Shown: positions 31,342-54,092, numbered from the stretch's first letter. The stretch is DNA of 64,000 bases from Patescibacteria group bacterium (GCA_028718865.1 JAQUKX010000004.1:35753-99752); one strand, 5' to 3'. Numbers and translations: made by a program. The notes: generated by a model not told the origin, from the sequence alone.

Positions 31342-31343
31342 TT

Positions 31344-32699
31344 CTAGAGCAAATGCACATCCTCTACTTCGCTTACCTTGCTGTGGAGCACTAAATTTTC
31401 TATATGGTAAGCGCCCATTTTGGGAGCATCCAAAAATCCTTCTACCGCTGCTTCCGCCAGCCAGCCTGAATCCAGCCAATCAAAAAGCCACTCGTCGACA
31501 TAAGCCGGATCAAGACTATCAACGCCCGAACCAATAGCCAAAAGCCAGCCGCGGTTGTAAATCTCCTGCGAGCCGACCGGCTCGGACATAATAATAGGCA
31601 GTCCCAGGCCAGTATAAAAAGTCAGCTCTGATGGCTTGGTCCATAAAATATCCGTTTTTCTTAAAATTTTGTTAAAAACGGAAAAGTAAGTCATTTTTTC
31701 CTCGGTGTAGATTATCTTTACATTATCGGAATTAAATAAGCCCAGCCTTTTCACTTCGTCCTCAAAATAAGTATAAACATCATTGCGAGTGCCGGCTACT
31801 AGATTGAGTTGGATATCCTTGGCCTTGATATGTTTTTTTAGCTTTTTCAAAATAGTTATACCGATATCGCGCTGCGCGCCAGCGCCGCCGACAGCAAAAG
31901 TGATAGTCAAAGGCCGTTTGGGTTTTTTTATTTTTTTGATTGGACAAAGATAGTCTTCTATCAGCTTGGCGTATTTTTTGCGATAAACACCGCGGGGGTC
32001 TAGATTATATACTCTGTCCGCCAAATCCGCCCGCAAAACCGATTGATCCAAGCCGCCGATATTTTCCGGCGGCAAAGGAAAGCCGGTGATAAAAATATTT
32101 TTCTCCCTGACGCCGTAGAGTTTTAAACGCTCTTTGACTCTTTTGTTGGGTGCCAGATAAATTATCCGGCTCTTGGACGGATTTGGCGGCGCCCAAGCAC
32201 GGGCAATATCGGCATCGCAAACCACTAAATATATCGGTCCTTTGTAATTATAATATTCAGCAAAGTAAGCCGGAACAAAAAAAGTGGTCAAAAAAGGCAA
32301 GGGTTTTTTATTTAGCTCTCTTATTAATTCTCGACCCAGGCCTTTTTTTACTTGATTAAAAAAATAATTCTGCTGGCTGGAATTAGCGGAAAGGTCGCGG
32401 CGCGGGTAAAAAGGCTCAATTTTCTGAAAACTGTCCATAATAGAAAAAGCCGCTGTGCCTAAAAGCGGAACATTTTTGAAACGAGAAATTATTTCATACC
32501 ACTTACGGCCACTTTGCCAAACTCTCTTTTCTCGAGAGTTGATGCCGGGGTAATTATTGGCATTGATAATACCGTGATAAGCTAAGGAGGCAAAAGGATA
32601 AGCCGCTCGCTGATGTCCGTAGCCCATGTCCACCGCCACAACATACATTTTTTCCGCCGGCAGCTTAGATACTCGGGCTTGAAGGGTTTTATTTTTCAT
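31344..32699 (-). CDS. GT-B fold glycosyltransferase, GT28-like (MGDG synthase/UgtP/MurG-like)
   Basis: 451 aa; N-terminal VDMGYGHQRAA (compare GGGH of MGDG synthases), C-terminal ITFAVGGAGAQ ... ILWTKPSELTFYTGLGLPIIMSEPVGSQEIYN resembling GT28 donor-binding domain; no nucleotide-binding P-loop. Confidence 0.5.
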   Translation of the reverse strand: MKNKTLQARVSKLPAEKMYVVAVDMGYGHQRAAYPFASLAYHGIINANNYPGINSREKRVWQSGRKWYEIISRFKNVPLLGTAAFSIMDSFQKIEPFYPRRDLSANSSQQNYFFNQVKKGLGRELIRELNKKPLPFLTTFFVPAYFAEYYNYKGPIYLVVCDADIARAWAPPNPSKSRIIYLAPNKRVKERLKLYGVREKNIFITGFPLPPENIGGLDQSVLRADLADRVYNLDPRGVYRKKYAKLIEDYLCPIKKIKKPKRPLTITFAVGGAGAQRDIGITILKKLKKHIKAKDIQLNLVAGTRNDVYTYFEDEVKRLGLFNSDNVKIIYTEEKMTYFSVFNKILRKTDILWTKPSELTFYTGLGLPIIMSEPVGSQEIYNRGWLLAIGSGVDSLDPAYVDEWLFDWLDSGWLAEAAVEGFLDAPKMGAYHIENLVLHSKVSEVEDVHLL

Positions 32700-33654: not shown

Positions 33655-35760
33655 ATGATTAGCTTCAGCCGAGAGCAAAATATTTTGGGCCAATTCGCTC
33701 TAGCCGGCCTGATACTGGGCAATATTTTTATTTTTCAGCTAAAAGCACTGGCCATTATCTTGGCCTTACTTTTTATCTGGCTAAACAGCCGCAAACTGGC
33801 TGATATCTTTGCCGCTGATATCCATCAGGGTTTCAAAAACTTGGTCGGATTTTTGATAATTATAGCTTATATTAGCCTGACCTACACGCTAGCTTATCAC
33901 GTCTATCAGATTGACTTCTGGGTATTTCTTTTTACTTTTTTATCAATACCGATTATTGTCGAGGTTTTTTCTTATTTTAAAAACAGTCGGCACTATTTTC
34001 TAGCCAATTTGAAACTTTCTCCTCCCAGCTTACAGCATCTCCGCCGCAATCTTTTGCCTATTTTGGTCATAGTTTTTGATATTATTCTGCTTGTCGGCTT
34101 ACAAAAAAGCACCAGCATCGGCATTATCCGCTCTCCTTGGGAGCTTTTGGGTCAAAAATTCTGGACTGTTTTCACTTTGAGTAATTTTTTCCTACTCTTA
34201 TCAATCATTGATCAGTCTTCACGCAAAAACATCCTGCTTATTTCTTTTCATTTTTTTGTTTTGGCCAGCATCGGCATTATCCTCTACCCGCTGGGTTTTG
34301 GCTATGATTCTTTTATCCACGCCGCTGTCATTAAAGTAATAGATCAAACTGGCACAATTGAACCGCGTCTTTTTCTCTATATAGGCCAATACGGCCTGAC
34401 CTTTTTCTTTGGTCAGATATTCCAGATTGACCCCTTAGTGGTAAACAAATGGCTGCTGCCTATTATCTTTGCCATTATTTGGCCGGCCAGTGTTTTTTAT
34501 GGCTTACGCTACGGCTTCAAGTGGCCTTTTTCCATCAGTTATCTAGCCAGCTGCTGGAGTCTGGTGATAGGCTTTAACTTTGCCGTCATGACTACCCCTC
34601 AGAATTTAGCTTATGTCTTCGTAGCCATGATGGTTTTTTTGCTGCCTATAATCATCAAAAAAAGCCTGCCCCTTTTCTTCCCTTGGCTGATAAGCGCTAT
34701 GACTATGGCCGTTCATCCTTTGGGCGGTGTGCCTTTATTTTTTCTCAGCGCTTATATCAGCATCTTGCGAATAAAAAAATTCCCCAAGTTGAGAAAAATG
34801 CTTCTGGGCTTAAATTTTTTTGGCGCCCTACTAGGACTACCGCTTTTGTTTGCTATATACCAAAGGCTCAACCACATCAGCTGGCCGGAAATAATCACTC
34901 CTCAAATCGGATCTTTTTTCCGCCTGCCTGATTTCTATTGGCATAACACTTTTAGTTTTCCCTTGGACATGTTCCACAATCTGGCCAATAATTTTTTCTG
35001 GCTGTACTCTATCTTATTCCTGCTTGGCCTGTATTTTATTTACCAAAACAGCAAATATATATTTTTTCAAAGACTGTTTTATCTGCTTTTGGTGATTTTT
35101 GTCAATTATGTCTTGGCAGCTTTGTTTTTGTCATTCAATCTGCAAATCAACTACCAAAAAGACGCTTATCTGGAGCGACTGCTCTATCTGCTGCTAATTG
35201 CTACTCTGCCGGTATTTCTCACTACTTTTTATTTCCTCTGGCAGCATACCCTCAAAACTAAAAAAGCGTTTTTTGGAAAAACCCTGCTTTTGCTCTTGAG
35301 CCTGCTGCTGGTATCAGTGAGCACTTACTTCAGCTACCCAATATACGACCGCTTGGGCAACAGCAAAAGCTTCAATGTCAGCGCTAGCGATCTTAAAACC
35401 GTAATTTTGATAGACCAGCACTCTCAAGGAGAGCCTTATATAGTATTGGCCAATCAAATGGTGGGAGCAGCTGCTATTGATTCCTTTGGCTTTGCCCATT
35501 ATTACAATGACAATTTCTACTACTCCATGCCTCTGGGCAGTGACAATATCTACCAAAATTATCTGGCCATGATAGAGCAAGAAGCCAGCCGCCAAGAAGC
35601 TATAAGTGCCATGGACAAAACTCAAGTTGACCGGCTTTATTTTGTCGTCAATAATTACTGGCATAGCGCTAAACAAGCCATTGCCCAAGCCAGTGTCAGT
35701 GCTGACCAAAAAATACTAGTGGATCAAGGTGTCAATACCATCTTTGTTTACCAAAGATAA
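33655..35760 (+). CDS. hypothetical large polytopic membrane protein with C-terminal soluble domain
   Basis: 701 aa, over 14 hydrophobic segments then about 130-aa hydrophilic tail; only long plus-strand gene in this region. Confidence 0.6.
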   Translation: MISFSREQNILGQFALAGLILGNIFIFQLKALAIILALLFIWLNSRKLADIFAADIHQGFKNLVGFLIIIAYISLTYTLAYHVYQIDFWVFLFTFLSIPIIVEVFSYFKNSRHYFLANLKLSPPSLQHLRRNLLPILVIVFDIILLVGLQKSTSIGIIRSPWELLGQKFWTVFTLSNFFLLLSIIDQSSRKNILLISFHFFVLASIGIILYPLGFGYDSFIHAAVIKVIDQTGTIEPRLFLYIGQYGLTFFFGQIFQIDPLVVNKWLLPIIFAIIWPASVFYGLRYGFKWPFSISYLASCWSLVIGFNFAVMTTPQNLAYVFVAMMVFLLPIIIKKSLPLFFPWLISAMTMAVHPLGGVPLFFLSAYISILRIKKFPKLRKMLLGLNFFGALLGLPLLFAIYQRLNHISWPEIITPQIGSFFRLPDFYWHNTFSFPLDMFHNLANNFFWLYSILFLLGLYFIYQNSKYIFFQRLFYLLLVIFVNYVLAALFLSFNLQINYQKDAYLERLLYLLLIATLPVFLTTFYFLWQHTLKTKKAFFGKTLLLLLSLLLVSVSTYFSYPIYDRLGNSKSFNVSASDLKTVILIDQHSQGEPYIVLANQMVGAAAIDSFGFAHYYNDNFYYSMPLGSDNIYQNYLAMIEQEASRQEAISAMDKTQVDRLYFVVNNYWHSAKQAIAQASVSADQKILVDQGVNTIFVYQR

Positions 35761-37810: not shown

Positions 37811-38821
37811 TTAATCTTTTGCTTCAAAATCCAAAAAATAACCGAACCTAGCTCTTCCTCTATATTGCGGTTTTTTCAAATTCAAAGTAGTGATTATGCC
37901 GCGCGGACTCAAATCATAACCTTCTATTTTTACATCCCGACCGTCAACAATGGCCGTGGCCATTACCGGTTGAGGATGGCCTATGGCATAAGCCAATTTT
38001 ACCAAGACTTCTTTGGCCTGATATTTTTTCAAATACTTTGTAGCCAGATAACGAGCCATATAAGCAGCGCTACGATCAACTTTGGTGGCATCCTTACCGC
38101 TATAGCAGCCACCGCCGACTGGAATCTGCGGGCCATAGTTATCCACAATAATTTTACGTCCGGTTAAGCCGGTATCTGCCTCAAAACCTCCTTGGACAAA
38201 AGGACCAGCTGGATTGATAAAAATATTTTTATAATCCGGTACAATAGTATCTACTATTTCTTTTTGAACCAGTTTTCTCAATTGCTCAATCTCAATCTCC
38301 GGACTATGCTGGGTGGAAATAACTACGGTTTCCACTTGGCCGTTATTGATAGTGATTTGTGATTTGCCATCGGGCCGCAAATATTTTGCCAGCTCTGACT
38401 GGCCTTTTACCCTTACTTCCTCGAGCTTTCTGGCCAAATTATAAGCCAAGACATGTTCGCGAGGAAGGAGCTCTTTGGTTTCGCTGCTAGCATAACCCAC
38501 CATGATACCCTGATCGCCAGCGCCACCGGTATCTACTCCCCGGGCAATATCAGGGCTTTGCTTAACAATATTGACGAATATTTCCAATTCTTCATCATAG
38601 CCGATTTCTTTATAAACTTCCCTGGCAATTTGGGCGGCGTCAAACTTGGCGCTGGTAGTCACCTCGCCCATAATAACTAGCTGGCCATGCCCGCCCAAAG
38701 CTTCTACTGCCACCCGACTGTCGGGATCTTGCCTCAAACATTCATCTAAAATAGCATCCGATATCTGGTCGCAAACTTTATCCGGATGACCGTAAGTTAC
38801 ATTTTCCGCTGTCTTTAGCAT
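37811..38821 (-). CDS. metK: S-adenosylmethionine synthetase (short form)
   Basis: 336 aa; GHPDKVCDQISDAILD, GGAGDQGIMVGYA and other MetK motifs. Confidence 0.88.
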   Translation of the reverse strand: MLKTAENVTYGHPDKVCDQISDAILDECLRQDPDSRVAVEALGGHGQLVIMGEVTTSAKFDAAQIAREVYKEIGYDEELEIFVNIVKQSPDIARGVDTGGAGDQGIMVGYASSETKELLPREHVLAYNLARKLEEVRVKGQSELAKYLRPDGKSQITINNGQVETVVISTQHSPEIEIEQLRKLVQKEIVDTIVPDYKNIFINPAGPFVQGGFEADTGLTGRKIIVDNYGPQIPVGGGCYSGKDATKVDRSAAYMARYLATKYLKKYQAKEVLVKLAYAIGHPQPVMATAIVDGRDVKIEGYDLSPRGIITTLNLKKPQYRGRARFGYFLDFEAKD

Positions 38822-38842: not shown

Positions 38843-38990
38843 AAAAACTCTCCTTTAAGAGAGTGGATAAAAATTATCTTTCCCTCACAAAGGGTTGGAC
38901 TGAGCACCTTTCTCTGCCTGCCAGCTGGCAGACAGCAAGATGGTTGCCGGCGGATCACAGAGCCAATTCTCTCCCCGCTCTCTTGATAAA
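38843..38990 (-). promoter_or_regulatory. SAM-I (S-box) riboswitch with terminator expression platform, in metK leader
   Basis: Minus strand: UUAUCAAGAGAGCGGGGAGAGAAUUGGCUCUGUGAUCCGCCGGCAACC...AAGGUGCUCAGUCCAACC...GGGAAAGAUAA (P1 UUAUC/GAUAA, conserved AGAGNGG, GGCAACC, GGUGC, AGAUAA), then hairpin CCACUCUCUUAAAGGAGAGU plus UUUUUU before the metK ATG. Confidence 0.8.
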
Positions 38991-39109
38991 ACTTTTCCGC
39001 AACTGCTGCGAAAAATATTAAATTGTTAAAAATAGTATAGCTTATTTTGAAAATTTTGACAAATATGCAATAATAATAGAGTAAAAAATAAAAAAGGAGA
39101 AATATAAAA

Positions 39110-41573: not shown

Positions 41574-42725
41574 TCAATACTGACGGCTCCGGCGGCTGGC
41601 TTGACGACTAAAACGATGCGCTTCTTCCCGACTTTGCAGCAGAATATTTTTTATACTATCGGTCAACTGCTTAAACTGCTTGTCGGCTCCTCTGGTATAG
41701 ACTAGTTTATCACCGGCTAATTTGGAAATACCGACTATCGGCACTCTGATATTTTTTAATTTAAAAAAATTATCCACAAAATCAACCTGCGGCCGGCCGC
41801 CATCCAGCATAATAATATCAGGCTGGGGCCACTCATGATGATTAAAACGCCTAGTTAAGACTTCAACCAAGGCCCGCAAATCATCGGCGGCCGGAGCGCT
41901 TTTTATTTTAAACAAACGATACTGACTTTTATCAGCTTGACCGTTACTAAAAACTACCATGGATCCATAAGGCTCCTTGCCAGCCAAATGGGATATATCA
42001 TAACCCTCAATGCGGCTCAGGCCGGCCATACCGAAATCATCACGGCTGATTAAAGAAGCATCGCTGATATGTTTGAGGCTGGCTATCAAATCTGGATTTT
42101 CTTTGGCCAATTTTTTGACCAATCTTTTTTTGTCGCCTTGTAAAAGCAAAATTATATTTTTTATATTATTTTTATATTTTGCCCGACTGACTTCGCCAAC
42201 ACAAATACCTGGACACAGACCTATCTGATAATCAAAACAAGGCCGGCCTTGCTTGGGCCGACAAGTGCTATAAGGGAAAAGGCGACGGATTATGCGCAAG
42301 GCACCGCGCAGTAAATGCTGAGCCTGATAAGGCCCAAAAATATAAGCCTTGCTTTTGGGAAATTTTTTTAGCTGGCGACCGCGGACAATAAACGGATAAG
42401 GATAATCACCTTTGGCAATGACTATGTAGATAAAAGAACGGTCATCGCGATCACGGACATTATACTTGGGCCAAAATTTCTTGATCAAATTGGCTTCCAA
42501 AATTACACTGTCAAGGATAGTCTCGGTTTTTTCGTATTTAATATCATTAGCTTGGGTAACCATCTCTTCTATTCTTGGCTCCAAATCTTTTCGAAAATAC
42601 TGGGAAATTCTCTTTTTGAGCGAGCCAGCCCGGCCAATATAAAGCACTCCTCTCTTTTTATCCAAAAAGCGATAAACGCCCGGTGTATCAGGAAAATTTT
42701 TAATTTTATTTTTCAAATTCGGCAT
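41574..42725 (-). CDS. uvrC: excinuclease ABC subunit C, short form lacking the C-terminal (HhH)2 domain
   Basis: 383 aa; GIY-YIG (PGVYRFLDKKRGVLYIGRAGSLKKR), Cys-rich region, UvrBC-like helix and RNase H-like domain (EGYDISHLAG...); ORF stops where the HhH region would begin. Confidence 0.8.
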   Translation of the reverse strand: MPNLKNKIKNFPDTPGVYRFLDKKRGVLYIGRAGSLKKRISQYFRKDLEPRIEEMVTQANDIKYEKTETILDSVILEANLIKKFWPKYNVRDRDDRSFIYIVIAKGDYPYPFIVRGRQLKKFPKSKAYIFGPYQAQHLLRGALRIIRRLFPYSTCRPKQGRPCFDYQIGLCPGICVGEVSRAKYKNNIKNIILLLQGDKKRLVKKLAKENPDLIASLKHISDASLISRDDFGMAGLSRIEGYDISHLAGKEPYGSMVVFSNGQADKSQYRLFKIKSAPAADDLRALVEVLTRRFNHHEWPQPDIIMLDGGRPQVDFVDNFFKLKNIRVPIVGISKLAGDKLVYTRGADKQFKQLTDSIKNILLQSREEAHRFSRQASRRSRQY

Positions 42726-42726
42726 T

Positions 42727-45237
42727 TTATTTTAAATACTCTTTTAAATATTTGCCGGTGACTGATGCTTGATTGGCAGCCACTTGCTCCGGCGTGCCTT
42801 TGGCCACCAATTTGCCGCCAGCCTGGCCGCCTTCTGGGCCAAGATCAATCAGATAATCCATAGATTTGATGACATGAAGGTTGTGTTCTATCACCACTAC
42901 TGAGTTGCCCTTTTCTATCAGTTTGTTTAAAACTTTCAATAACAATTCTATGTCATGATAATGCAGGCCGACTGTGGGCTCATCCAAAAGATAAAGGCTG
43001 CGCTTACCCAGCTTATGAGTAAGCTCTCTGGCCAATTTTATCCTTTGAGCTTCACCGCCCGATAAGGTGGTAGCGCTCTGGCCGAGTTGTAAATAGCCAA
43101 GCCCGACTTCCTGTAAAACTTTTAGCTTGTCAATGATATGATAATTGCCGTCAAAATAATCTATGGCTTCCTCAATGGTCAATTTCAAAACCTCGGCGAT
43201 ATTTTTGCCTTTGTGCTTTACTTGCAAAGTTTCTCTATTAAACCTCTTTCCCCGACAAACATCGCACTCCACATAAACTGCCGGCAAAAAATGCATTTCT
43301 ATCAGCTTGTAGCCAGCGCCGTCACAAGCCTCGCAACGGCCACCTGCCCGATTGAAAGAAAATCTTGATAAGGTATAGCCGCGCTCTCTGGCATCAGGCA
43401 ATTGGGCAAAAAATTCTCTGATTGGCGTAAATATGCCGGTGTAAGTAGCAGGATTTGACCGCGGCGTACGGCCAATCGGCGACTGGTCTATCACGATTAC
43501 TTTGGCTACATATTCACTGCCTTCCAAACGGGTCAAGTCCTGCAGTTTGAATCTACCGGGACGGTTTTTGATAGCAGCCAAATTTTTGTAAAGCACATCA
43601 TAGAGCAAAGTTGACTTACCGCTGCCGGATACTCCGCTGATGCCGACCAGTCTTCGCAGAGGTATTTCTACTTGCAGATTTTTCAAATTATTAGCTCGGG
43701 CGCCGATTAATTTCAAACTTTCCGTGCTCCTCTGCCGTCTTTTTTCAGGTACAGCAATACGCCTATCGCCGACAATATAATCCACTGTCATTGACTGAGC
43801 CGTATTTTTCTTGGCCAAAACCTGTTTGCTAGGCCCGGCAATTACGACCTCGCCGCCATGCACTCCAGCCATCGGACCCAAATCAACCAAATAATCCGCA
43901 TCCAAAATAGTCTGCTCATCATGCTCGACCACTATCACGGTATTATTTTTGGCTCGCAAAGATTTGAGAGTATCTATCAGCTTCTGAGTATCTCTTTCGT
44001 GCAGGCCTATGGTCGGCTCGTCCAAAACATAAAGGGTGCGGGACAAATGCGAGCCGATTTGCGAAGACAGCCTGATGCGCTGGGCTTCGCCGCCTGAAAG
44101 CGTATGCGCCCGCCTATCTAGCGTCAAATAATTCAAGCCAACTTTTAGCAAAAACTCCAAACGGCTGATTATCTCCACTACTACCGGCTCAGCTACTGCC
44201 CTGTCCTTGGTCGGCATTTTTTCAAAATAAGTATTGAAAAATTCCTGCGCTTGATCAATCGGCAAGGCTGTCAACTGGGCAATGTTTTTATTGCGGATTT
44301 TGACTGACAAAGTTTCGGGTCTCAATCTCTGGCCACCACAATCAGCGCAAGCTTCGTCGTTTTCCCAAGAGGCTACTCCCAAGCCATTACAAGCCGGGCA
44401 AGCGCCGTGCGGGCTATTGAAAGAAAAAAGCCTAGGCTCCACTTCGGGAAAAGAAAAATTGTCCTGCGGGCAAGTCCAATTGGAAGAAAGTAAAAACTCT
44501 TCGGGCTTTGACTTATCATCGTCAAATAAAACTGTCATTACCGATTGGCCGTAATCAAGGGCGTTTTCTACTGCCTCGGACAAACGGGATTGGTCGCTCA
44601 GCAATACTTTGTCCACGATGATATCTATGTCATGCTTTTTGTATCTGGCTAGATTTATCTTTTCATGCAGATTGTGATAGCGGCCGTCAATTCTGGCTTG
44701 AGAATAACCCAAAGCCAGATAATCATACAGGAGCTGATAATACTCGCCCTTACGGCCTCGGATCACTGGCGCTAAAATACTGACATACTGCTGCTTCAAT
44801 TCTTTGCCGCGCTTGACAATAATGTCTGCCATTTCATCCACTGACAGCTTTTGAATTTTTTGTCCGCAAAGCGGACAAAATACTTCTCCCAGCCGTGCGT
44901 ACAAGACCCGCAGATAATCATAAATCTCAGTCAAGGTGCCGACTGTGGAACGCGGATTGTGGCTCAAAGACCTCTGATCAATGGAAATAGACGGCGCTAG
45001 TCCGATAATCTCATCAACGTCTGCCGGCTTCATTTGTCCCAAAAATTGCCGCGCATAAGGCGATAGCGATTCAATATAGCGCCTTTGGCCTTCGGCAAAA
45101 ATAGTGTCAAAAGCCAAAGACGATTTGCCGCTGCCGGAAACGCCGGTGATTACCGTCAATTGATTATGAGGTATAGTCAGGCTGATATTTTTCAAGTTGT
45201 GCACTCTGGCGCCCTTGATAATTATATTTTCTTCCAT
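42727..45237 (-). CDS. uvrA: excinuclease ABC subunit A
   Basis: 836 aa; two ABC ATPase modules (GVSGSGKSSLAFDT / GVSGSGKSTLLYDV) with zinc-finger Cys clusters. Confidence 0.92.
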   Translation of the reverse strand: MEENIIIKGARVHNLKNISLTIPHNQLTVITGVSGSGKSSLAFDTIFAEGQRRYIESLSPYARQFLGQMKPADVDEIIGLAPSISIDQRSLSHNPRSTVGTLTEIYDYLRVLYARLGEVFCPLCGQKIQKLSVDEMADIIVKRGKELKQQYVSILAPVIRGRKGEYYQLLYDYLALGYSQARIDGRYHNLHEKINLARYKKHDIDIIVDKVLLSDQSRLSEAVENALDYGQSVMTVLFDDDKSKPEEFLLSSNWTCPQDNFSFPEVEPRLFSFNSPHGACPACNGLGVASWENDEACADCGGQRLRPETLSVKIRNKNIAQLTALPIDQAQEFFNTYFEKMPTKDRAVAEPVVVEIISRLEFLLKVGLNYLTLDRRAHTLSGGEAQRIRLSSQIGSHLSRTLYVLDEPTIGLHERDTQKLIDTLKSLRAKNNTVIVVEHDEQTILDADYLVDLGPMAGVHGGEVVIAGPSKQVLAKKNTAQSMTVDYIVGDRRIAVPEKRRQRSTESLKLIGARANNLKNLQVEIPLRRLVGISGVSGSGKSTLLYDVLYKNLAAIKNRPGRFKLQDLTRLEGSEYVAKVIVIDQSPIGRTPRSNPATYTGIFTPIREFFAQLPDARERGYTLSRFSFNRAGGRCEACDGAGYKLIEMHFLPAVYVECDVCRGKRFNRETLQVKHKGKNIAEVLKLTIEEAIDYFDGNYHIIDKLKVLQEVGLGYLQLGQSATTLSGGEAQRIKLARELTHKLGKRSLYLLDEPTVGLHYHDIELLLKVLNKLIEKGNSVVVIEHNLHVIKSMDYLIDLGPEGGQAGGKLVAKGTPEQVAANQASVTGKYLKEYLK

Positions 45238-45339
45238 AAATTTAATTAAAAATTTCTGCGGACAGATAATACTACGAGCGATTTAGGCGAAGCCGTTAAG
45301 CGAATAATATTATCTGGAAGCGATATTATTCGTTAGTTA

Positions 45340-47193
45340 TTATTTTTTAATTTTTGGCTTAGCTTCAATATCCAAAAATCTTTCCATTTTTTTAATAATG
45401 GTTTTAGGTTCTATTTTGTGTTTTTTATTATAAGCCAGTTGTAAAAAACGGCGGCGATTGACTTCATTGATTGCTCTTTTGATAGAACCAGTGAGCTTGT
45501 CGGCATAAAGTATTACCTGGCCTCTGACATTTCTAGCTGCTCGCCCCATAGTCTGAACCAATGAAGTTTCACTGCGCAAAAAGCCTTCCCGGTCAGCATC
45601 CAAAATCGCCACCAAAGACACCTCTGGCAAATCCAAACCTTCCCGCAAAAGATTGACGCCAATCAAGACATCAAACTTGCCGCGCCGAAAATCCAGCAGA
45701 ATATCCGTCCGCTCTATTGTCTTGATATCCGAATGAATATAATTGGATTTTATGTTTTTTTTCTTTAAATAAGCGTGCAAATCCTCGGCTTGACGCTTGG
45801 TCAAAGTATTGATTATTGTTCTTTCTTTTTTACTACTGATTTTTTCTATTTCTTTGATAATATCGTCTATTTGGCTTTGATTATTTTTTTTGTCAAAAAC
45901 CGGCCGGACTTCTATTGGCGGATCTATCAAGCCAGTAGGCCGGATAAGCTGCTGGGCTACTTGCCGACTGTGCTCAAGTTCCCATTTGCCTGGAGTGGCT
46001 GAGGTAAAAATAGTCTGCCCAACGCGGCTGATAAACTCATCAAATTTTAGCGGTCGATTATCCAGCGCTGAAGGCAAGCGCCAGCCGTATTGCACTAGAG
46101 TTTCTTTGCGACTTCTGTCACCCTCGTACATACCTCTAACTTGAGGCAAAGCAATATGCGACTCATCCATAATAGTCAAAAAATCTGGCCGACCGTCTTT
46201 GGCTGGAAAATAAGCCAGCAAAGTATCCGGCGCTTGGCCAGCCGGCTTGCCCGTCAAGTGGCGGGAATAATTTTCTATGCCATGGCAGTAGCCCAGCGAA
46301 GCCAGCATCTCCATATCATAGCGAGTCCGCCTTTCCAGACGCTCCTGTTCCAGATAAAGTTTTTTCTTGGCCAGATAAGCCAGCCTTTCTTTGAGCTCGG
46401 CTTTGATATCCCTTATGGCTCGCTTGGTTTCTGGCTGGGAAGAGACAAAATGCTTGACTGGAAATAACAAGGCTTCTTGCAAATCTTCTTTTACTTTTCT
46501 GGTCAGTTTATCTACCAGCAAAATTGAACTAATTTTTTGTTCAGTAAGCTCTAAACGATAAATCAGCTTCTGGGCAGCCGGCATTATTTCAAACACATCC
46601 CCCCTGACTCGGAAAAGCCCTCTTTTCAATTCTCCGGGCGTGCGAGTAAATTGGATATTGACCAGTTGTTTTATCAAATCGCCTCTGACTATATTCTGCC
46701 CCAGAGTCAAATGAAGGCAAGACTGCAAATAATTGACCGGTAAGCCGAGATTGTAAATACAGGAAACCGAAGCCACTACTATCACATCTCTTCTGGTCAA
46801 AAGAGCGGAAGTAGCTTGATGGCGCAAGCGGTCAATTTCATCATTGATCATTGCTTCTTTTTCTATATAAGTATCAGTGATAGGCATATAAGCCTCAGGC
46901 TGATAATAATCATAATAAGAAACAAAATAATTAACCGAATTTTCCGGAAAAAAATTCTTATACTCACGATAAAGCTGAGCAGCCAGAGCTTTGTTGGGCG
47001 CCATTACCAAAACCGGCTTGTCAAACTGAGCAATTACATTGGCCATAGTAAAAGTCTTGCCCGAGCCAGTTACTCCCAAAAGAGTTTGATAATCATAGCC
47101 TTTTCCCAATCCAGCAATAAGCCTGTTTATAGCTTGAGGCTGATCTCCGGCCGGCTCAAAAGGCGCTTTTAATTTAAATATTTTTTTAGTCAT
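45340..47193 (-). CDS. uvrB: excinuclease ABC subunit B
   Basis: 617 aa; LGVTGSGKTFTMANVI Walker A, helicase motifs, C-terminal UvrB/UvrC interaction region. Confidence 0.92.
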   Translation of the reverse strand: MTKKIFKLKAPFEPAGDQPQAINRLIAGLGKGYDYQTLLGVTGSGKTFTMANVIAQFDKPVLVMAPNKALAAQLYREYKNFFPENSVNYFVSYYDYYQPEAYMPITDTYIEKEAMINDEIDRLRHQATSALLTRRDVIVVASVSCIYNLGLPVNYLQSCLHLTLGQNIVRGDLIKQLVNIQFTRTPGELKRGLFRVRGDVFEIMPAAQKLIYRLELTEQKISSILLVDKLTRKVKEDLQEALLFPVKHFVSSQPETKRAIRDIKAELKERLAYLAKKKLYLEQERLERRTRYDMEMLASLGYCHGIENYSRHLTGKPAGQAPDTLLAYFPAKDGRPDFLTIMDESHIALPQVRGMYEGDRSRKETLVQYGWRLPSALDNRPLKFDEFISRVGQTIFTSATPGKWELEHSRQVAQQLIRPTGLIDPPIEVRPVFDKKNNQSQIDDIIKEIEKISSKKERTIINTLTKRQAEDLHAYLKKKNIKSNYIHSDIKTIERTDILLDFRRGKFDVLIGVNLLREGLDLPEVSLVAILDADREGFLRSETSLVQTMGRAARNVRGQVILYADKLTGSIKRAINEVNRRRFLQLAYNKKHKIEPKTIIKKMERFLDIEAKPKIKK

Positions 47194-48247: not shown

Positions 48248-48862
48248 TTATTTCCCCAGTTCATTTTCATTTAGCACTTTTTTATTTTTGTTTTTTATAA
48301 ACCTACTCCTATAAATTATCAGCATCAACGATGAATTGAGAATAAGCAGATATATAGGAAAAGCTATTTCTGAAATAGCAAATGTCCTTAAAGCGAAAAA
48401 ACTAGTCAAAGAATTGAATACTCCTGTTGAATAAGCTTCTACTGATTCTGTTTCTGGATATTTCCAAGACTTGATAAGAGTCGGCATAGCCGCAAAAAAA
48501 TCAGCCGCCAGGGCAAAGATAATAGCCACTACTGGCTCCTTGGTAATCCACCAAAGAATTAGGGCTAAAATTGATAGAGTGCCACAAGCATAATCAAAAG
48601 TTCTCAATCGCCAATATGATTTTTTATTTGCAAAAGAAACAATAAAAACCAACAATGGAGCAAAGCCAGCCATAAATACTGGCAACACAGCCAAACGAAC
48701 GCCATCAGATAAGGCTGCTGAAGTGGCAATCAGCGGTGCTATAGACCACATTAGCCAAGTGACCCGATTGGGTTTTGTGTTGCCTTTGATTGTTTCTTTT
48801 ACATAGATATATATTCCAGCCAACTGGACAAAAGCACCTATGAAGACTATGTATTGGGTCAT
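48248..48862 (-). CDS. hypothetical multi-pass membrane protein
   Basis: 204 aa, 6-7 hydrophobic helices. Confidence 0.5.
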   Translation of the reverse strand: MTQYIVFIGAFVQLAGIYIYVKETIKGNTKPNRVTWLMWSIAPLIATSAALSDGVRLAVLPVFMAGFAPLLVFIVSFANKKSYWRLRTFDYACGTLSILALILWWITKEPVVAIIFALAADFFAAMPTLIKSWKYPETESVEAYSTGVFNSLTSFFALRTFAISEIAFPIYLLILNSSLMLIIYRSRFIKNKNKKVLNENELGK

Positions 48863-48875
48863 GTATTTATCTATG

Positions 48876-49871
48876 TTATTTTTCTCTCTTTACCACCAAC
48901 TGCCCGCAAGCAGCCTCTATATCTTTGCCAAAACTATAGCGCTGAGTAACTAACACTCCTTCTCTTTCCAAAATGCTTTTAAATTTTCTGATTTCTGAAC
49001 TACGAGAAGCTTTGAAAACTTCCGTAGGATTATAAGCAATTAGATTGAGTAGATAAAGCGGTTTTTTCATCAGCTTGGCCAGCTCTTGAGCATGCTGAGG
49101 CTGATCATTGACACCTCGGATCATCAAATATTCAAACATCACTTGCCTATCGGTCTTGGCAATATATTTATCTACTTCGGCCAAAAGATCTTTAAGGGGA
49201 AAGCGTTTGTTAATTGGCATTAGTTGAGTACGCAATTTATCATTGGGAGCATGTAAAGATATAGCCAGATTAATTTGCTTGTCATAAGTAGCTAATTTTT
49301 TGATACCATGAATAACTCCGCTGGTGGAAATAGAAATTCGTCTGGCGCCAATTTTGAAATCTTCATTGAGATATTTGATAGCCTTGATTACATTATCGTA
49401 ATTTAAAAAAGGCTCGCCCATGCCCATAAAAACAATATTGCTTATCCTCTGCTTGTCTTTGGCCAAATAGCGAGCAAAAAATAAAGCCTGATCAATTATC
49501 TCGCCATATTGCAAATTCCTGACCAGACCCATTTTGCCGGTAGCACAAAAACTGCAACCCAAAGGACAGCCAATCTGACTGGAAAGACAAACTGTATATC
49601 GTCCGTCTTTATGACTAAGGAGCACAGTTTCTATTTTTTGGTCATCGGCCAAAATCAAAAGAGCTTTTATAGACTGTCCGTCTGAGGAAATCTTTGTTTC
49701 TCCTTTTATTTCCAAAGGACAGGCCTGATTAAGCTGATTTTTGAGTTCTTTGGGCAAAGTACTGGCTTGCTCCCAATTATCAGCTAGTTGATCAAAAATA
49801 ACCGCTTTAGCCTGGCTAACGCGGTATTTGGGCTGATCTTTTAAAATCTTATATAATTTATCAAAATCCAT
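48876..49871 (-). CDS. rlmN: radical SAM 23S rRNA/tRNA adenine C2-methyltransferase RlmN/Cfr family
   Basis: 331 aa; CPLGCSFCATG radical-SAM cluster motif, GMGEP and C-terminal Cys of RlmN. Confidence 0.85.
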   Translation of the reverse strand: MDFDKLYKILKDQPKYRVSQAKAVIFDQLADNWEQASTLPKELKNQLNQACPLEIKGETKISSDGQSIKALLILADDQKIETVLLSHKDGRYTVCLSSQIGCPLGCSFCATGKMGLVRNLQYGEIIDQALFFARYLAKDKQRISNIVFMGMGEPFLNYDNVIKAIKYLNEDFKIGARRISISTSGVIHGIKKLATYDKQINLAISLHAPNDKLRTQLMPINKRFPLKDLLAEVDKYIAKTDRQVMFEYLMIRGVNDQPQHAQELAKLMKKPLYLLNLIAYNPTEVFKASRSSEIRKFKSILEREGVLVTQRYSFGKDIEAACGQLVVKREK

Positions 49872-49916: not shown

Positions 49917-51254
49917 TTACAAAGAAAATTTTTCGTAATGGATTTTGCTTGGCGGATTTGGCAATGACTTGAGTAATTTTTTGACACTATCAATCATGGC
50001 TGGCGGACCGCAAAGATAAACTTCTCGCCTATCAATATCCGGCACTAGACGTTTTATTTTTTCCTCATCCACATGCCCTTTTTCCCCAGCAAAGTCAGCT
50101 TGCTCGCTCAAAATATGAATTATCTGCGCTCCTTTGGCTTGAGCCAATTGTTCTAGTTCATCTTTGAAAACAATATCTTGACTACTTCTGTTGGCATAAA
50201 GCAATTTGATGTCCTTGCCTTTTTTTAGCATCTCTTCCATTAGCGATCTAATAGGAGTAATGCCAATACCACCGGCAATCAAAAGAATTGAACGACTGTC
50301 GCTAAATAAATCAGTAAAAATACCATAAGGCCCTTCAATAATTATTGGCGTGCCCGGGACAATTTGATCAATGCGAGAAGTAAAGTCCCCGATTTTTTTT
50401 ATAGTAAAACGCAGAGAATGGCCATCAGGTAATTTGGATAAAGAAAAAGGATGAGCCTGCCACCAATTTTTTTTATCCAAAAAGCGTAAAATCATAAACT
50501 GACCAGCTTGAATTTTAAAATTTTCTAAATTGCGTCCGGAAATATAAACTGAAACAGTGTTGTGGTTTTCCCTAAATATTTTTTCCACCTTAAATTGATG
50601 CTTTTTGAAAAGTATAAAAGGTCTAAAAAAACGAAAAAACAAATGACTAGAAAAAACCAAAACATACAATCCTATCCAGTAGCTATAAAAAACCTTGCTG
50701 GCCAAAAAATCGCCCCCTAACCTGACTTGATGCCAAAAAGAAGAAAAAACTGCCAGATAAACCAGCAAGTGCACAAAATACCAAGCTTCATAAGGTAATT
50801 TTTTACGCACTATATAAATAGAGCTGGCAATCACCACTAAAAATAAAAACAGACCCAAGAAAGCCAAGCCAAGGTCGTCAAAGTTTTTGAAAAAAACTAG
50901 CAGTTGAGCGCCAAAGCCAGAGCGGGAAAAAACCGAATAGCTGGCCACTAAAAAAACAGGATGAAGCAAGAGAAAAATCAAGCTCCATTGTCCGCTCAAG
51001 CGATGAACTCGTGACAACTTGTCCAGACCAAAAGCGCTCTCCAGCCAGGGCATACGACCCATAAAAACAAACTGGAGCATCACTGCATAAGCTGCCAATA
51101 GTCCAGCAATGCGCCCCAGGGCTAGGAGCAAATAGCCTCTGCCCTGAGAAAGAAGCGAGCCTGATCCTTGCCACCAGAAAAATAAAATAAGCAAAGCATT
51201 GACCAGTAGAAAACTCAGCCAAAATCGTCTCGCCCAAAAAATATTTTTGCGCAT
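49917..51254 (-). CDS. ferric reductase-like transmembrane domain fused to FAD/NAD(P)-binding FNR-like domain
   Basis: 445 aa; 6 TM helices with paired His (HRLSGQW...LLLHPV; YFVHLLVY...FWHQV), then HPFSL FAD motif and LIAGGIGITP NAD(P) motif. Confidence 0.8.
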   Translation of the reverse strand: MRKNIFWARRFWLSFLLVNALLILFFWWQGSGSLLSQGRGYLLLALGRIAGLLAAYAVMLQFVFMGRMPWLESAFGLDKLSRVHRLSGQWSLIFLLLHPVFLVASYSVFSRSGFGAQLLVFFKNFDDLGLAFLGLFLFLVVIASSIYIVRKKLPYEAWYFVHLLVYLAVFSSFWHQVRLGGDFLASKVFYSYWIGLYVLVFSSHLFFRFFRPFILFKKHQFKVEKIFRENHNTVSVYISGRNLENFKIQAGQFMILRFLDKKNWWQAHPFSLSKLPDGHSLRFTIKKIGDFTSRIDQIVPGTPIIIEGPYGIFTDLFSDSRSILLIAGGIGITPIRSLMEEMLKKGKDIKLLYANRSSQDIVFKDELEQLAQAKGAQIIHILSEQADFAGEKGHVDEEKIKRLVPDIDRREVYLCGPPAMIDSVKKLLKSLPNPPSKIHYEKFSL

Positions 51255-51256
51255 TT

Positions 51257-51781
51257 TTATTCAACTATCAATTTTCCTACCATGCCCATTTGGCGATGTT
51301 GGCCAACCGAGCAGTAAAATTCAAATTCACCAGTTCTGTCAGCGATAAATTCAATAGTCTGCTCTTCACCAGCCTGCATTTGCCTGGTAGCGGCATTGAA
51401 TTCATCCAGCACCCAGTCATGGAAGCCTTCTTCATTGACAAAACGCAAACGCACCAAGTCTCCCTGCTTGACTCTGATCTCGCTACTAGAATAGCCAAAG
51501 TTAAAAGCAGTTATATTGACCTCGCTGACATTAAGGCTTGTATCAATATCAAGGCTAGTGTCAATTCCTACTTCTAAAACAGAATTGTCACTATCATTGT
51601 CCATTTCCTCTCCTAAATTGCCGTTATTTTCCAGCTCCAGCTCAAAATCGCCATTGTTTTCCTGGGCAACTTCCTGGCCGTTTTGTAATCCCAAACCCTC
51701 TTCGCTTTGACGGCTGGAAACAAACCACAAGCCTCCCAAGAGAACAACTAGCAAAATTATAAATAAATATACTTTATTCAT
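51257..51781 (-). CDS. cupredoxin (type-1 blue copper protein), membrane-anchored/secreted
   Basis: 174 aa; N-terminal TM/signal; C-terminal ...GFHDWVLDEF...YCSVGQHRQMGM with the H/C/H/M type-1 Cu ligand set; 2 nt upstream of the ferric-reductase gene. Confidence 0.75.
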   Translation of the reverse strand: MNKVYLFIILLVVLLGGLWFVSSRQSEEGLGLQNGQEVAQENNGDFELELENNGNLGEEMDNDSDNSVLEVGIDTSLDIDTSLNVSEVNITAFNFGYSSSEIRVKQGDLVRLRFVNEEGFHDWVLDEFNAATRQMQAGEEQTIEFIADRTGEFEFYCSVGQHRQMGMVGKLIVE

Positions 51782-51972
51782 ATATTTTCTTACTATTAAT
51801 TATTATTTATTAGATAAATAGCAATGAATTGCTTTATTTATAATAAAGGAAAAAAGGAAATTCTTCAATAGCTAGCAGGAACATTGACGATTTTAAAAAA
51901 AAATTATATTATAAAAAAACCTGGTTTATCTGGGCAATAGGCAGGATGGACACTGCTCAGGAGGAAATACAG

Positions 51973-52137
51973 ATGCGCAAAAACTACGATCTGCATCACA
52001 CTGTTCTCAAACTAAGCTGGCTATATCTGGCCAGCCAGGTCGCCATCGCCGCCTTGCTGGGCTTCATGCCCAAACACAGTTCTCATGCTCCGCAAGGAGC
52101 AACTCATCATATAGAGCGAGTCGTCTCCTCAAAGTAG
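51973..52137 (+). CDS. hypothetical 54-aa protein (islet D)
   Basis: MRKNYDLHHTVLKLSWLYLASQVAIAALLGFMPKHSSHAPQGATHHIERVVSSK; SD gctcAGGAGGaaatacagATG; one hydrophobic helix; GC-rich. Confidence 0.45.
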   Translation: MRKNYDLHHTVLKLSWLYLASQVAIAALLGFMPKHSSHAPQGATHHIERVVSSK

Positions 52138-52154
52138 ACGACGCTGGTAGCTCC

Positions 52155-52192
52155 GCCGGCAGACGCAAAGCGTCTGCCGGCTTTCTTTTTTT
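52155..52192 (+). terminator. strong intrinsic terminator after islet D gene
   Basis: GCCGGCAGACGCaaaGCGTCTGCCGGCtttcttttttt (12-bp perfect stem). Confidence 0.75.
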
Positions 52193-52211
52193 ATTATTTA
52201 TTAATAAAAAA

Positions 52212-53417
52212 TTAATTAAAAATCGCCGGATTTATTCTAATCACTTTGTCGTCGCCATCTCTGACTTGTCCTCGTCCATCTTGATTGCTGGTAGATAAAT
52301 AAAAATGTCCATCTGGCCCTAAAGCCACAGCTCTAAGCCGACCGAATTCTTTGAAAAAATGATATTTCAACTCTCTTGTCTCTAAATTATATTCATAAAG
52401 AGATTCCCCTCTAAGACCGGCAAAAAATAATCTATTTTGATAATAAAATAATCCAGCCGGCGCCCAAGTAGTACTAGCTCCCGACTGAATAACTGGACTG
52501 ATCATACCCTGACGACTTTCTCCTCCTTGAATAATTGGCCATCCATAATTTCCGCCGGCTTGTATCAAATTGAGTTCGTCATAACCAGAGGTCGCTCCTG
52601 ATCGCCCATGTTCAGTTGCCCAAAGCCTGCCCAAATTATCCCAAGCTAAGCCTTGGGGATTTCTATGACCGTAAGAATAAACTGGGCTACTAACAAAAGG
52701 GTTGTCATCGGGAATACTACCATCTTTGTTTATTCTCAATATTTTGCCTCCCAAAAAATCCAATTCCTGAGCTCGGTTGGCCTGACCCGCATCACCTACG
52801 GCAATATAGAGCCGACCGTCCGGCCCAAAAGCTATCCGACCACCGTCATGATATTGAGCTCCCGGCAAATCATCAATAATAATAGTTCTATTTAAGAGAG
52901 TTTTGTCAGAAATCTGATAGCGCTCTACTCTATTTATCAGACTGCCGTCTTTTCTGCCGGTCAAATACAAATAAAGATATTGATTGGCTGAAAAATCCGG
53001 ATCAAGTGCCATTCCCTGTAAACCACCTTCTCCTACATGAGACACTCCTTCAATACTAACTGTTGTCTGACCGCTGTTTATCAACAAAAGACTACCTGGT
53101 CTTTGGGTGACTAACATTTCTCCACTAGGCAACCAAGCTATTTCCCAAGGAATCTGTAAATCAGTCGCCACCACTTCAATATCGCTTAATTCTTCAATTA
53201 GCTCATTTTCTGACTCAACTATCTCCTCTGGCTCTGGAGCATCTTCTTCTTGATCTATTTCCCTCTGCTCCTCTTGAGTTTCATTGATACTTACGCCAGG
53301 CAAAGCTGTTTGCTCAGTAGGTTGAAAAAAATATTGCTGTAGCTTTTGGGCAAAGAAGAAATAAAACAGCCAAATCGCTACAATTAAGCTGATTATTATA
53401 ATAAATAGTTTTTTCAT
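52212..53417 (-). CDS. membrane-anchored soluble-type (PQQ-dependent/GSDH-like) sugar dehydrogenase beta-propeller
   Basis: 401 aa; N-terminal TM, acidic linker, then motifs ...QIPWEIAWLPSGEMLVTQRPG..., ...YSYGHRNPQGLAWD..., ...LWATEHGRSG... typical of glucose/sorbosone dehydrogenase family. Confidence 0.7.
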   Translation of the reverse strand: MKKLFIIIISLIVAIWLFYFFFAQKLQQYFFQPTEQTALPGVSINETQEEQREIDQEEDAPEPEEIVESENELIEELSDIEVVATDLQIPWEIAWLPSGEMLVTQRPGSLLLINSGQTTVSIEGVSHVGEGGLQGMALDPDFSANQYLYLYLTGRKDGSLINRVERYQISDKTLLNRTIIIDDLPGAQYHDGGRIAFGPDGRLYIAVGDAGQANRAQELDFLGGKILRINKDGSIPDDNPFVSSPVYSYGHRNPQGLAWDNLGRLWATEHGRSGATSGYDELNLIQAGGNYGWPIIQGGESRQGMISPVIQSGASTTWAPAGLFYYQNRLFFAGLRGESLYEYNLETRELKYHFFKEFGRLRAVALGPDGHFYLSTSNQDGRGQVRDGDDKVIRINPAIFN

Positions 53418-53646: not shown

Positions 53647-53722
53647 GCCGAGATAGCTCAGTTGGTAGAGCAATGGTTTTGTAAACCATGGGTCGGGGGT
53701 TCGAATCCTCTTCTCGGCTCCA
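53647..53722 (+). tRNA. tRNA-Thr (anticodon UGU), CCA encoded
   Basis: GCCGAGAtaGCTCagttggtaGAGCaATGGTtttgtaaACCATgggtcGGGGGttcgaatCCTCTTCTCGGCtCCA; cloverleaf with TTCGAAT T-loop and anticodon loop uuUGUaa. Confidence 0.85.
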
Positions 53723-54018: not shown

Positions 54019-54092
54019 GGGGGAGTAGTATAGTGGTAGTACAGGGGTCTCCAAAACCTCTAGCGAGGGTTCGATTCCTTCCTCCCCTGCCA
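54019..54092 (+). tRNA. tRNA-Trp (anticodon CCA), CCA encoded
   Basis: GGGGGAGtaGTATagtggtaGTACaGGGGTctccaaaACCTCtagcGAGGGttcgattCCTTCCTCCCCTgCCA; anticodon loop cuCCAaa. Confidence 0.8.

Follow-up and report, generated by a model that had tools for sequence, protein, structure and literature searches.

Although Patescibacteria count as fermenters that have no electron-transport chain, nirK and a cupredoxin occur together in many of them (PMC5581439). Danczak et al., in 2017 reported a cupredoxin in every nirK-bearing genome of the Candidate Phyla Radiation (CPR), where electrons arrive 'by an unknown means' (PMC5581439). This text concerns a cupredoxin gene and, 2 nt beyond its stop codon, the ATG of a NOX-like flavocytochrome gene in a 64,000-nt stretch of DNA from a Patescibacteria group bacterium (GCA_028718865.1, JAQUKX010000004.1:35753-99752), the whole of which is called the window throughout. 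We propose, with a probability of roughly 60% and from sequence evidence, that this pair would export electrons across the membrane at the expense of NAD(P)H and without quinones, passing them from heme to copper. A sequence-only reading of the same DNA had combined the pair with a third minus-strand gene, encoding a GSDH-family sugar dehydrogenase, into one extracytoplasmic electron module. The three open reading frames (ORFs) are real and lie exactly where it had placed them, and the cupredoxin/NOX-like part is supported as a functional pair conserved across a clade of Patescibacteria, whereas the GSDH is not supported as a third component. The proteins are already recorded for a Patescibacteria metagenome-assembled genome, on a contig of 100 kb.

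Among the matches listed, the closest non-CPR relatives of the window membrane protein are the 'MsrQ-like' loci (L002-L024; 31-42% identity). Meheust et al., (2021, eLife) defined these systems by apbE and FMN_bind in the gene cluster and by a membrane protein of family PF01794, in many cases joined to PF00175 for NAD binding, and interpreted the version with FMN_bind and ApbE as extracytosolic electron transfer fed by NAD(P)H through that fused NAD-binding domain; some clusters include the iron transporter VIT1, for which a role as iron reductases was proposed, and cupredoxin goes unmentioned in that paper (PMC8238504). The architecture of PF01794 followed by a C-terminal PF00175 is common to MsrQ-like systems and the window protein, and both systems encode a small secreted redox carrier directly beside the membrane protein. 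In MsrQ-like systems, however, the carrier is a downstream FMN_bind protein that is covalently flavinylated by ApbE, whereas in the window it is an upstream type-1 cupredoxin. Hidden Markov models (HMMs) built from the neighbours of related loci found neither ApbE nor FMN_bind in the 64-kb window, and both are likewise missing from the cupredoxin-linked loci, so the window pair is related to the MsrQ-like flavinylated systems but is not a member of them.

The best characterised relative is the NOX of Streptococcus pneumoniae (SpNOX), in which H69, H83, H129 and H142 are the ligands of the inner and outer hemes (PMC11564096). Its outer heme is highly exposed and there is no canonical O2-reduction centre; cytochrome c is reduced directly and faster than O2, ferric iron is reduced directly at a very low rate (kcat 0.05 s-1), the knockout has no phenotype, and the authors stated that the physiological acceptor may be something other than O2 and that there may be a protein in this role (PMC11564096). 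A further likeness is to MsrPQ of E. coli, where an FRD-family di-heme protein (MsrQ/YedZ) sends electrons outward to a dedicated periplasmic partner (MsrP) encoded beside it. MsrQ has no fused FNR domain and is fed by quinol or Fre, whereas the window protein has a fused FNR-type domain, and MsrP is a catalytic molybdoenzyme, whereas the window cupredoxin would be a pure electron carrier. The cupredoxin for its part shares the C-x4-H-x4-M loop with the tethered cupredoxin of three-domain NirK (H. denitrificans 2dv6, 6tfd/6tfo). Such NirK domains, and the azurin and pseudoazurin donors, feed electrons to a catalytic copper enzyme; the window cupredoxin, in contrast, is free-standing and membrane-anchored, with no NirK encoded in the window.

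The NOX-like protein and its cupredoxin

All the domains named in the sequence-only reading (GSDH, cupredoxin, ferric reductase, FAD- and NAD-binding) score above their Pfam gathering scores, and its motif claims (HPFSL, GGIGITP, a bis-His domain of six transmembrane helices and an H/C/H/M copper site) are borne out by motif positions and orthologue alignments. The NOX-like protein matches Ferric_reduct (PF01794, 6.5e-15), FAD_binding_8 (PF08022, 8e-11), NAD_binding_1 (PF00175, 5e-23) and NAD_binding_6 (PF08030, 4e-8). Across 21 orthologues H268, P269, F270 and S271 of the FAD motif HPFSL (268-272), GGIGITP (328-334), CGP (415-417) and the C-terminal F443 are invariant, as are the transmembrane histidine pairs H84/H98 and H162/H175, with 13 and 12 intervening residues respectively, and R48 in the second transmembrane helix is nearly so. 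Pairwise alignment sets H84/H98/H162/H175 against SpNOX H69/H83/H129/H142, which assigns H84 and H162 to the inner heme and H98 and H175 to the outer heme. The outer-heme ligand stands in the context H98-P-V-F-L, and the His at +4 of the canonical O2 centre is absent. SpNOX is also the best relative in the PDB by phmmer (8qt6/8qq7, 2e-31, full length); the AlphaFold2 (AF2) model of the window protein (pLDDT 86, pTM 0.77) shows six transmembrane helices with short outer loops, and Foldseek aligns it to 8qq7 with a TM-score of 0.76/0.84. The two proteins thus match in fold over their full length, in the four heme histidines, in the FAD/NADPH motifs, in the short outer loops and in the C-terminal aromatic residue (F443 here, F397 in SpNOX). 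They are, however, only ~27% identical and SpNOX belongs to a distant clade; Streptococcus SpNOX loci, unlike the window, have no adjacent small carrier gene, and reduction of O2 and of cytochrome c has been measured with SpNOX, where the window protein is known from its sequence. Hajjar et al., in 2017 defined bacterial NOX by the FAD motif H[PSA]F[TS][LIMV], bis-histidyl pairs in transmembrane helices three and five, and 3-7 such helices; the window protein agrees with their definition in its FAD motif, GIGITP (329-334), bis-His pairs and helix number, and conforms to every sequence criterion of the bacterial NOX family.

The cupredoxin scores against Cupredoxin_1 (PF13473, 1.8e-8) and Copper-bind (PF00127, 2.3e-7), and in the PDB it comes closest to the type-1 copper domain at the N-terminus of 2dv6, a three-domain nitrite reductase (5e-13). 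H121, C157, H162 and M167 align to the ligands of that domain and are invariant in 34 family members. In the AF2 model residues 3-24 form a transmembrane helix and residues 25-84 a disordered, acidic linker, while residues 85-174 fold into a confidently modelled beta-sandwich (pLDDT 92-98); its nearest folds according to Foldseek are the cupredoxin domains through which electrons enter three-domain NirK and N2O reductase. The protein accordingly carries the classical type-1 H/C/H/M set in a modelled beta-sandwich and is predicted to bind copper. Its N-terminal hydrophobic anchor (residues 4-22) is preceded by MKK/MNK and followed by the acidic linker, an arrangement shared with the GSDH. In the alignment of the wider family the linker varies and the copper domain is highly conserved, and in some homologues a lipobox replaces the transmembrane anchor. 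Homology to SpNOX puts the FAD/NAD domain inside, with the copper protein and the GSDH propeller outside; the topology assumed in the sequence-only reading thus holds, and the arrangement that it had named as refuting, with cupredoxin and FAD/NAD domain both on the cytoplasmic side, is not the one predicted.

To place the pair in context, 109 loci were collected by a genome scan, a metagenome scan and twelve neighbourhood look-ups, and all their ORFs were searched with the window proteins and with HMMs made from recurrent neighbours. The metagenome scan, made with the single protein, contributed 10 loci. The genome scan, made by NOX-orthologue alignment, was informative for distant clades and poor, with at least one close relative, for the cupredoxin clade, i.e. 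the NOX-like proteins at least 46% identical to that of the window, for which the sample is modest at 15 loci from ~12 lineages. A cupredoxin of the same family lies immediately upstream on the same strand, at 2-32 nt, in 12 of the 15 (window, L103, L001, L081, L084, L085, L086, L087, L089, L094, L095 and L102), which after merging of near-identical loci corresponds to ~9 of the 12 lineages, Peregrinibacteria and Taylorbacteria included. As the genes flanking the pair differ from lineage to lineage, this conservation is not mere synteny, and the cupredoxin and NOX-like genes are a conserved two-gene unit, best read as an operon with translational coupling. Fusions of the two proteins were not seen among the best 120 matches of either protein's search, and no metal transporter is conserved beside the pair in the neighbourhoods compared; the L101 NOX-like orthologue is followed by a cation diffusion facilitator (CDF) efflux gene, and a P-type ATPase gene lies near that of L082. 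HMM searches of the 64-kb window also found no other flavin-carrier or cytochrome genes of the partner kinds described below. A literature search, which covered few subscription journals so that absence is not proof, yielded no paper on a NOX-like/cupredoxin pair or on NOX proteins of the CPR; the pairing is probably new, the related flavinylated version having already been published.

The cupredoxin family is broader than this pair. Between the window and its near-congener L103 the cupredoxin is the most diverged of the three proteins (72% identity, against 83% for the GSDH and 90% for the NOX-like protein). In L104 a homologue with no adjacent NOX gene ends a run of genes for MsrB, glutaredoxin, DUF3179, Fe/Mn-superoxide dismutase (SOD) and peroxiredoxin, which it directly follows, and UvrB and UvrA come next. 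UvrB/UvrA genes near a cupredoxin in both L104 and the window may be the remnant of a shared oxidative-damage neighbourhood.

Carriers beside NOX-like genes of other clades

The partner survey, in which ORFs lying up to 2.5 kb from the NOX-like gene were clustered and then checked against Pfam, revealed several recurrent partners located 0-80 bp from that gene on the same strand, each with an N-terminal signal or anchor. In 15-20 loci from Actinobacteria, Chloroflexi and Dormibacteria the partner is FMN_bind, which carries the flavinylation motif SGAT and has ApbE after it. The NOX-like gene is directly followed by a CxxCH cytochrome c in four Gaiellaceae/actinobacterial loci (L017, L025, L029, L030), and a transmembrane-anchored cytochrome b5 in six (L039, L063, L065, L069, L070, L077) from Pacearchaeota, Woesearchaeota, Buchananbacteria, Saccharibacteria and two Gammaproteobacteria; in the saccharibacterial locus L070 the partner is 361 aa long and contains the cytochrome b5 domain twice. 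No literature on the b5- and cytochrome-c-linked versions was found, no search having been aimed at them specifically, and they appear to be undescribed. A Sumerlaeota metagenome-assembled genome (L010) has instead a rubrerythrin (PF02915) with a twin-arginine/lipobox leader, whose gene ends ~95 nt before the NOX-like gene; it could act as an extracytoplasmic peroxidase that receives its electrons from the NOX-like protein.

The neighbour-joining tree groups the cupredoxin-linked genes in one clade (10 of its 13 leaves). The neighbouring clade of 27 leaves has FMN_bind 0-30 bp downstream together with ApbE in 20, the four cytochrome-c-linked genes form a monophyletic group nested in this FMN clade, and the b5-linked genes (5-6 loci) lie in a distant clade near SpNOX. 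Partner type follows phylogeny, the adjacent carrier being replaced clade by clade. We tentatively extend this to a joint reading, somewhat short of an even chance, in which prokaryotic NOX-like (FRD-FNR) proteins would be general quinone-independent exporters of NAD(P)H electrons to the outside, each working with a lineage-specific, swappable, tethered one-electron carrier. The carrier would then conceivably be a cupredoxin in the Patescibacteria clade, and in Actinobacteria, Chloroflexi and Dormibacteria either cytochrome c or an FMN_bind protein in flavinylated form; for DPANN archaea, some Patescibacteria and Gammaproteobacteria, cytochrome b5 is the equally tentative choice. The cupredoxin version in Patescibacteria could, with the same reserve, be the missing link that leads from NAD(P)H over a periplasmic cupredoxin to NirK or other outside reductases. 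With respect to the acceptor question raised for SpNOX, the cupredoxin, FMN_bind, cytochrome c and cytochrome b5 genes provide concrete candidates for a protein acceptor.

Proposed electron export and its alternatives

In the proposed mechanism NAD(P)H in the cytoplasm would give hydride to the FAD of the C-terminal FNR-type domain, single electrons would pass through the inner (H84/H162) and then the outer (H98/H175) b heme, and the exposed outer heme would reduce the type-1 copper of the cupredoxin, which its own transmembrane helix and a flexible linker of ~60 residues would hold at the outer face. Given this location, the gene's position 2 nt upstream and the exposed heme of SpNOX, the cupredoxin is most simply the acceptor. 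Reduced cupredoxin would then pass its electron to a terminal acceptor encoded outside the unit. Candidates are NirK where present, the window cupredoxin being most similar to a NirK-tethered cupredoxin domain; a different reductase or a peroxidase outside the cytoplasm, as the oxidative-stress enzymes near the L104 cupredoxin and the secreted rubrerythrin of L010 suggest; metal ions; or a component of a partner or host cell. For a fermentative, quinone-less Patescibacterium the likely gain would be an NAD(P)+-regenerating sink, reducing power outside the cell, or both. If this is true, a 445-residue protein that carries NAD(P)H electrons across the membrane without quinones fills the gap in electron supply to CPR cupredoxin and NirK, 'respiration-less' Patescibacteria gain a minimal electron sink, and models of their redox balance would change.

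The direction of flow would follow from redox potentials. NOX hemes and NAD(P)H have potentials of about -0.25 to -0.32 V, those of blue copper sites are roughly +0.2 to +0.4 V, and the inside-negative membrane potential favours outward movement of electrons. Since the copper potential is so far above those of heme and NAD(P)H, electrons would run only from NAD(P)H to copper, and inward flow to NAD(P)+ is rejected on these potentials. The sequence-only reading had linked oxidation outside to cytoplasmic NAD(P)(H), which in the inward sense is thermodynamically implausible. Its complete transmembrane path also fails for want of a terminal acceptor, because the GSDH, if it uses the cupredoxin, would be a second donor beside the NOX-like protein and the system would have no sink.

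Several points weigh against the export reading, which derives the heme-to-copper transfer, the direction of flow and the physiological role from genomic context and homology. Patescibacteria are generally not known to make heme or pyrroloquinoline quinone (PQQ), so these cofactors would need scavenging. The adjacent cupredoxin is missing in three loci of the clade (L082 of Peribacteraceae, L099 and L101), of three homologues sampled by way of the cupredoxin, too few to give a rate, two have no adjoining NOX-like gene, and 62 of 97 NOX-like loci, those of Streptococcus SpNOX included, have no recognisable adjacent carrier. No third gene is conserved beside the pair among the compared loci, and NirK, multicopper oxidases and any further copper protein are missing from the 64-kb window. 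The tree was midpoint-rooted and has no support values. Outer-face substitutions fixed between the cupredoxin and FMN clades were not found, the only two clade-specific fixed sites lying in the cytoplasmic domain, in a comparison for which the FMN clade is too diverse.

The membrane protein might instead be a true O2-reducing NADPH oxidase, producing superoxide or consuming O2 at the surface, with the cupredoxin as an accessory that handles or senses the product, defends against oxidative stress or, like p22phox, stabilises the oxidase through its transmembrane helix. That the protein passes all published NOX sequence filters speaks for this, as do the L104 and L010 neighbourhoods and the near-invariant R48, which might match the Arg of the eukaryotic O2 site. 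SpNOX, moreover, reduces O2 in vitro, but it too has no O2 centre and its authors doubt O2 as the physiological acceptor (PMC11564096). The absence of the +4 His from the outer-heme context of the window protein argues in the same direction, and sister clades place pure carriers (FMN_bind, cytochrome c, cytochrome b5) at the position of the cupredoxin. A buried, classical type-1 copper is, in general, a site of electron transfer and not of catalysis, and we consider an oxidase unlikely. The pair could also be a FRE/STEAP-like metal reductase, assimilatory or detoxifying, that reduces Fe(III) or Cu(II) outside while the cupredoxin binds or presents the metal. Ferric and cupric reductases do belong to the FRD superfamily, the VIT1-containing MsrQ-like clusters were proposed to be iron reductases (PMC8238504), and the CDF and P-type ATPase genes near the L101 and L082 orthologues would fit. 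A C-terminal match to the copper-resistance protein CopI would fit too, but it is weak, at 26 residues and 29 bits against a cut-off of 280 bits. With no metal transporter conserved beside the pair, the low ferric reductase rate of SpNOX (PMC11564096), and an invariant H/C/H/M site whose YCSVGxHRxxGM loop has the character of a fixed redox centre and not of an exchangeable metal site, a metal reductase is the least probable of the explanations considered.

The remaining alternative, a three-protein circuit, turns on the GSDH, which would oxidise sugar outside and reduce the same cupredoxin, in a weaker form as a second donor and in a stronger form with electrons passing inward to NAD(P)+. The protein covers profile positions 1-329 of 332 of PF07995 (E=2e-80), and its best PDB relative is the PQQ sugar dehydrogenase of P. 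aerophilum (3a9g, 8.5e-83). The alignment to 3a9g keeps the motifs YHDGGRIxFGPDG (YHDGGR) and GHRNPQG, which we take, from sGDH, to hold the catalytic His and the PQQ/Ca-binding site. The six-bladed propeller and the motifs are common to 3a9g, 2ism (T. thermophilus), 2g8s (E. coli YliI/Asd) and 1c9u (A. calcoaceticus sGDH); unlike these, the window protein has an N-terminal transmembrane anchor followed by an acidic linker. The anchor had been claimed in the sequence-only reading and is indeed present as an N-in hydrophobic segment at residues 4-22.

In favour of the circuit, the trio is adjacent in both the window and L103, with only 98 bp separating GSDH from cupredoxin in the latter, and GSDH and cupredoxin are both anchored outside; soluble-type PQQ dehydrogenases, moreover, generally have no known natural acceptor. 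L103 is, however, a near-congener with syntenic flanks and hence not independent evidence, and no GSDH occurs within +-6 kb of any of the 10 other cupredoxin-NOX loci, so the conserved unit comprises two genes and not three; the lack of co-occurrence elsewhere, which the sequence-only reading had named as refuting, thus essentially applies to the trio but not to the pair. GSDH orthologues are very common in Patescibacteria in a database search, in contexts that differ from that of the window, and two GSDH-side samples were heterogeneous in context with a NOX-like gene in neither. In Buchananbacteria (L107/L108) a 222-aa soluble FNR-like gene is followed by MsrB and, overlapping it by 4 nt, the GSDH orthologue; the FNR-like protein is 28% identical to the cytoplasmic domain of the window NOX-like protein and has no transmembrane domain. 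This co-operonic linkage to MsrB and an FNR-like protein suggests a different functional link for CPR GSDH. An unrelated Parcubacteria locus (L109) does have a cupredoxin lipoprotein ~800 bp upstream of its GSDH orthologue, which is three genes further on, but the lipoprotein is of the CuA type, with a complete C-x3-C-x3-H-x2-M motif, and so of a different class; no cytochrome oxidase accompanies it, and a copper-associated DUF411 gene lies downstream. The hairpin and promoter-like sites between GSDH and cupredoxin in the window (Table 1) also speak against the circuit, and its inward form would be uphill by roughly 0.5 V or more on established redox values and against the membrane potential. 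Overall the circuit is slightly less likely than an oxidase, and the GSDH is most probably a neighbour with a transcript of its own; its removal rids the locus of an over-interpretation, leaving the sugar dehydrogenase outside any conserved circuit.

The intergenic gap and other features of the window

The gap between GSDH and cupredoxin measures 430 bp in the window. Its hairpin is likely a terminator that separates the GSDH from the cupredoxin-NOX unit, and only the left arm is kept in L103. The two-gene unit possibly has its own promoter, as sigma-70-like sites precede the cupredoxin start; such consensus matches are weak evidence, 18 having been found against 12.5 expected in shuffles. Within the gap a 63-aa ORF runs on the plus strand, preceded by a promoter-like site and followed, on that strand, by the hairpin and its T-run. 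It has no Pfam match and no homologue among 1.8 billion representatives, and was on these grounds ruled out as a conserved component. The whole ~330-bp segment that contains it is absent from L103 and looks like a lineage-specific insertion.

Table 1. Positions of genes and other features in the window and in compared loci (positions outside the window are those of the locus named)
Feature	Locus	Position	Strand	Description
GSDH propeller gene	window	52212..53417	minus	401 aa; transmembrane-anchored, extracytoplasmic, PQQ-type (GSDH/sGDH-fold) sugar dehydrogenase
Cupredoxin gene	window	51257..51781	minus	174 aa; membrane-tethered type-1 (blue) copper protein
NOX-like flavocytochrome gene	window	49917..51254	minus	445 aa; SpNOX/'MsrQ-like' type; six transmembrane helices
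Hairpin	window	52155..52181		perfect 12-bp palindrome, 10 G-C, ~30 nt after GSDH stop; T-run on plus strand only
Sigma-70-like matches	window	51868-51840 and 51937-51908	minus	upstream of cupredoxin start; consensus matches only
63-aa ORF	window	51946-52137	plus	one hydrophobic segment, His-rich tail HSSHAPQGATHH
Promoter-like site of 63-aa ORF	window	51884-51912		
tRNA-Thr(TGT)	window	53647-53722	plus	upstream of GSDH
tRNA-Trp(CCA)	window	54019-54092	plus	upstream of GSDH
RlmN-like gene	window	48876-49871		
Membrane ORF	window	48248-48862	minus	204 aa, multi-pass
UvrB/UvrA/UvrC	window	41574-47193		
SAM riboswitch	window	38871-38992	minus	RF00162, 61 bits
336-aa ORF	window	37811-38821		
Large ORF	window	33655-35760	plus	701 aa
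OLD-family ATPase and DUF6938 protein	window	30007-32699	minus	490 aa and 451 aa
Large ORF	window	16549-18210	minus	553 aa
FMN_bind/ApbE-linked loci	L002-L024, L061, L090-L093			
Rubrerythrin gene	L010	4925-5857	plus	Sumerlaeota
Run ending in cupredoxin homologue	L104	2613-11225		
FNR-like, MsrB and GSDH orthologue	L107/L108	3930-6161		Buchananbacteria
CuA-type lipoprotein and DUF411 features	L109	3620-4186 and 7548-8030		Parcubacterium

According to ORF calls and Pfam, the remaining window genes are mainly housekeeping (Mur ligases, UvrABC, DnaK/DnaJ, glycosyltransferases), and an Rfam scan in and near the locus found no RNA family apart from the two tRNAs. The place of these tRNAs is taken in L103 by an extracytoplasmic function (ECF) sigma factor gene and a gene for a 431-aa protein with no assignment. 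Just downstream of the cupredoxin-NOX unit are the UvrB/UvrA/UvrC genes, and the RlmN-like gene separates the NOX-like gene from the 204-aa membrane ORF, the second gene downstream; neither this ORF nor the two large ORFs of 701 and 553 aa has a Pfam match. Further away, an S-adenosylmethionine (SAM) riboswitch lies upstream of a 336-aa ORF, and an OLD-family ATPase with TOPRIM (AAA_21/AAA_15/OLD-like_TOPRIM) is encoded beside a DUF6938 protein, the two forming a probable anti-phage defence pair.

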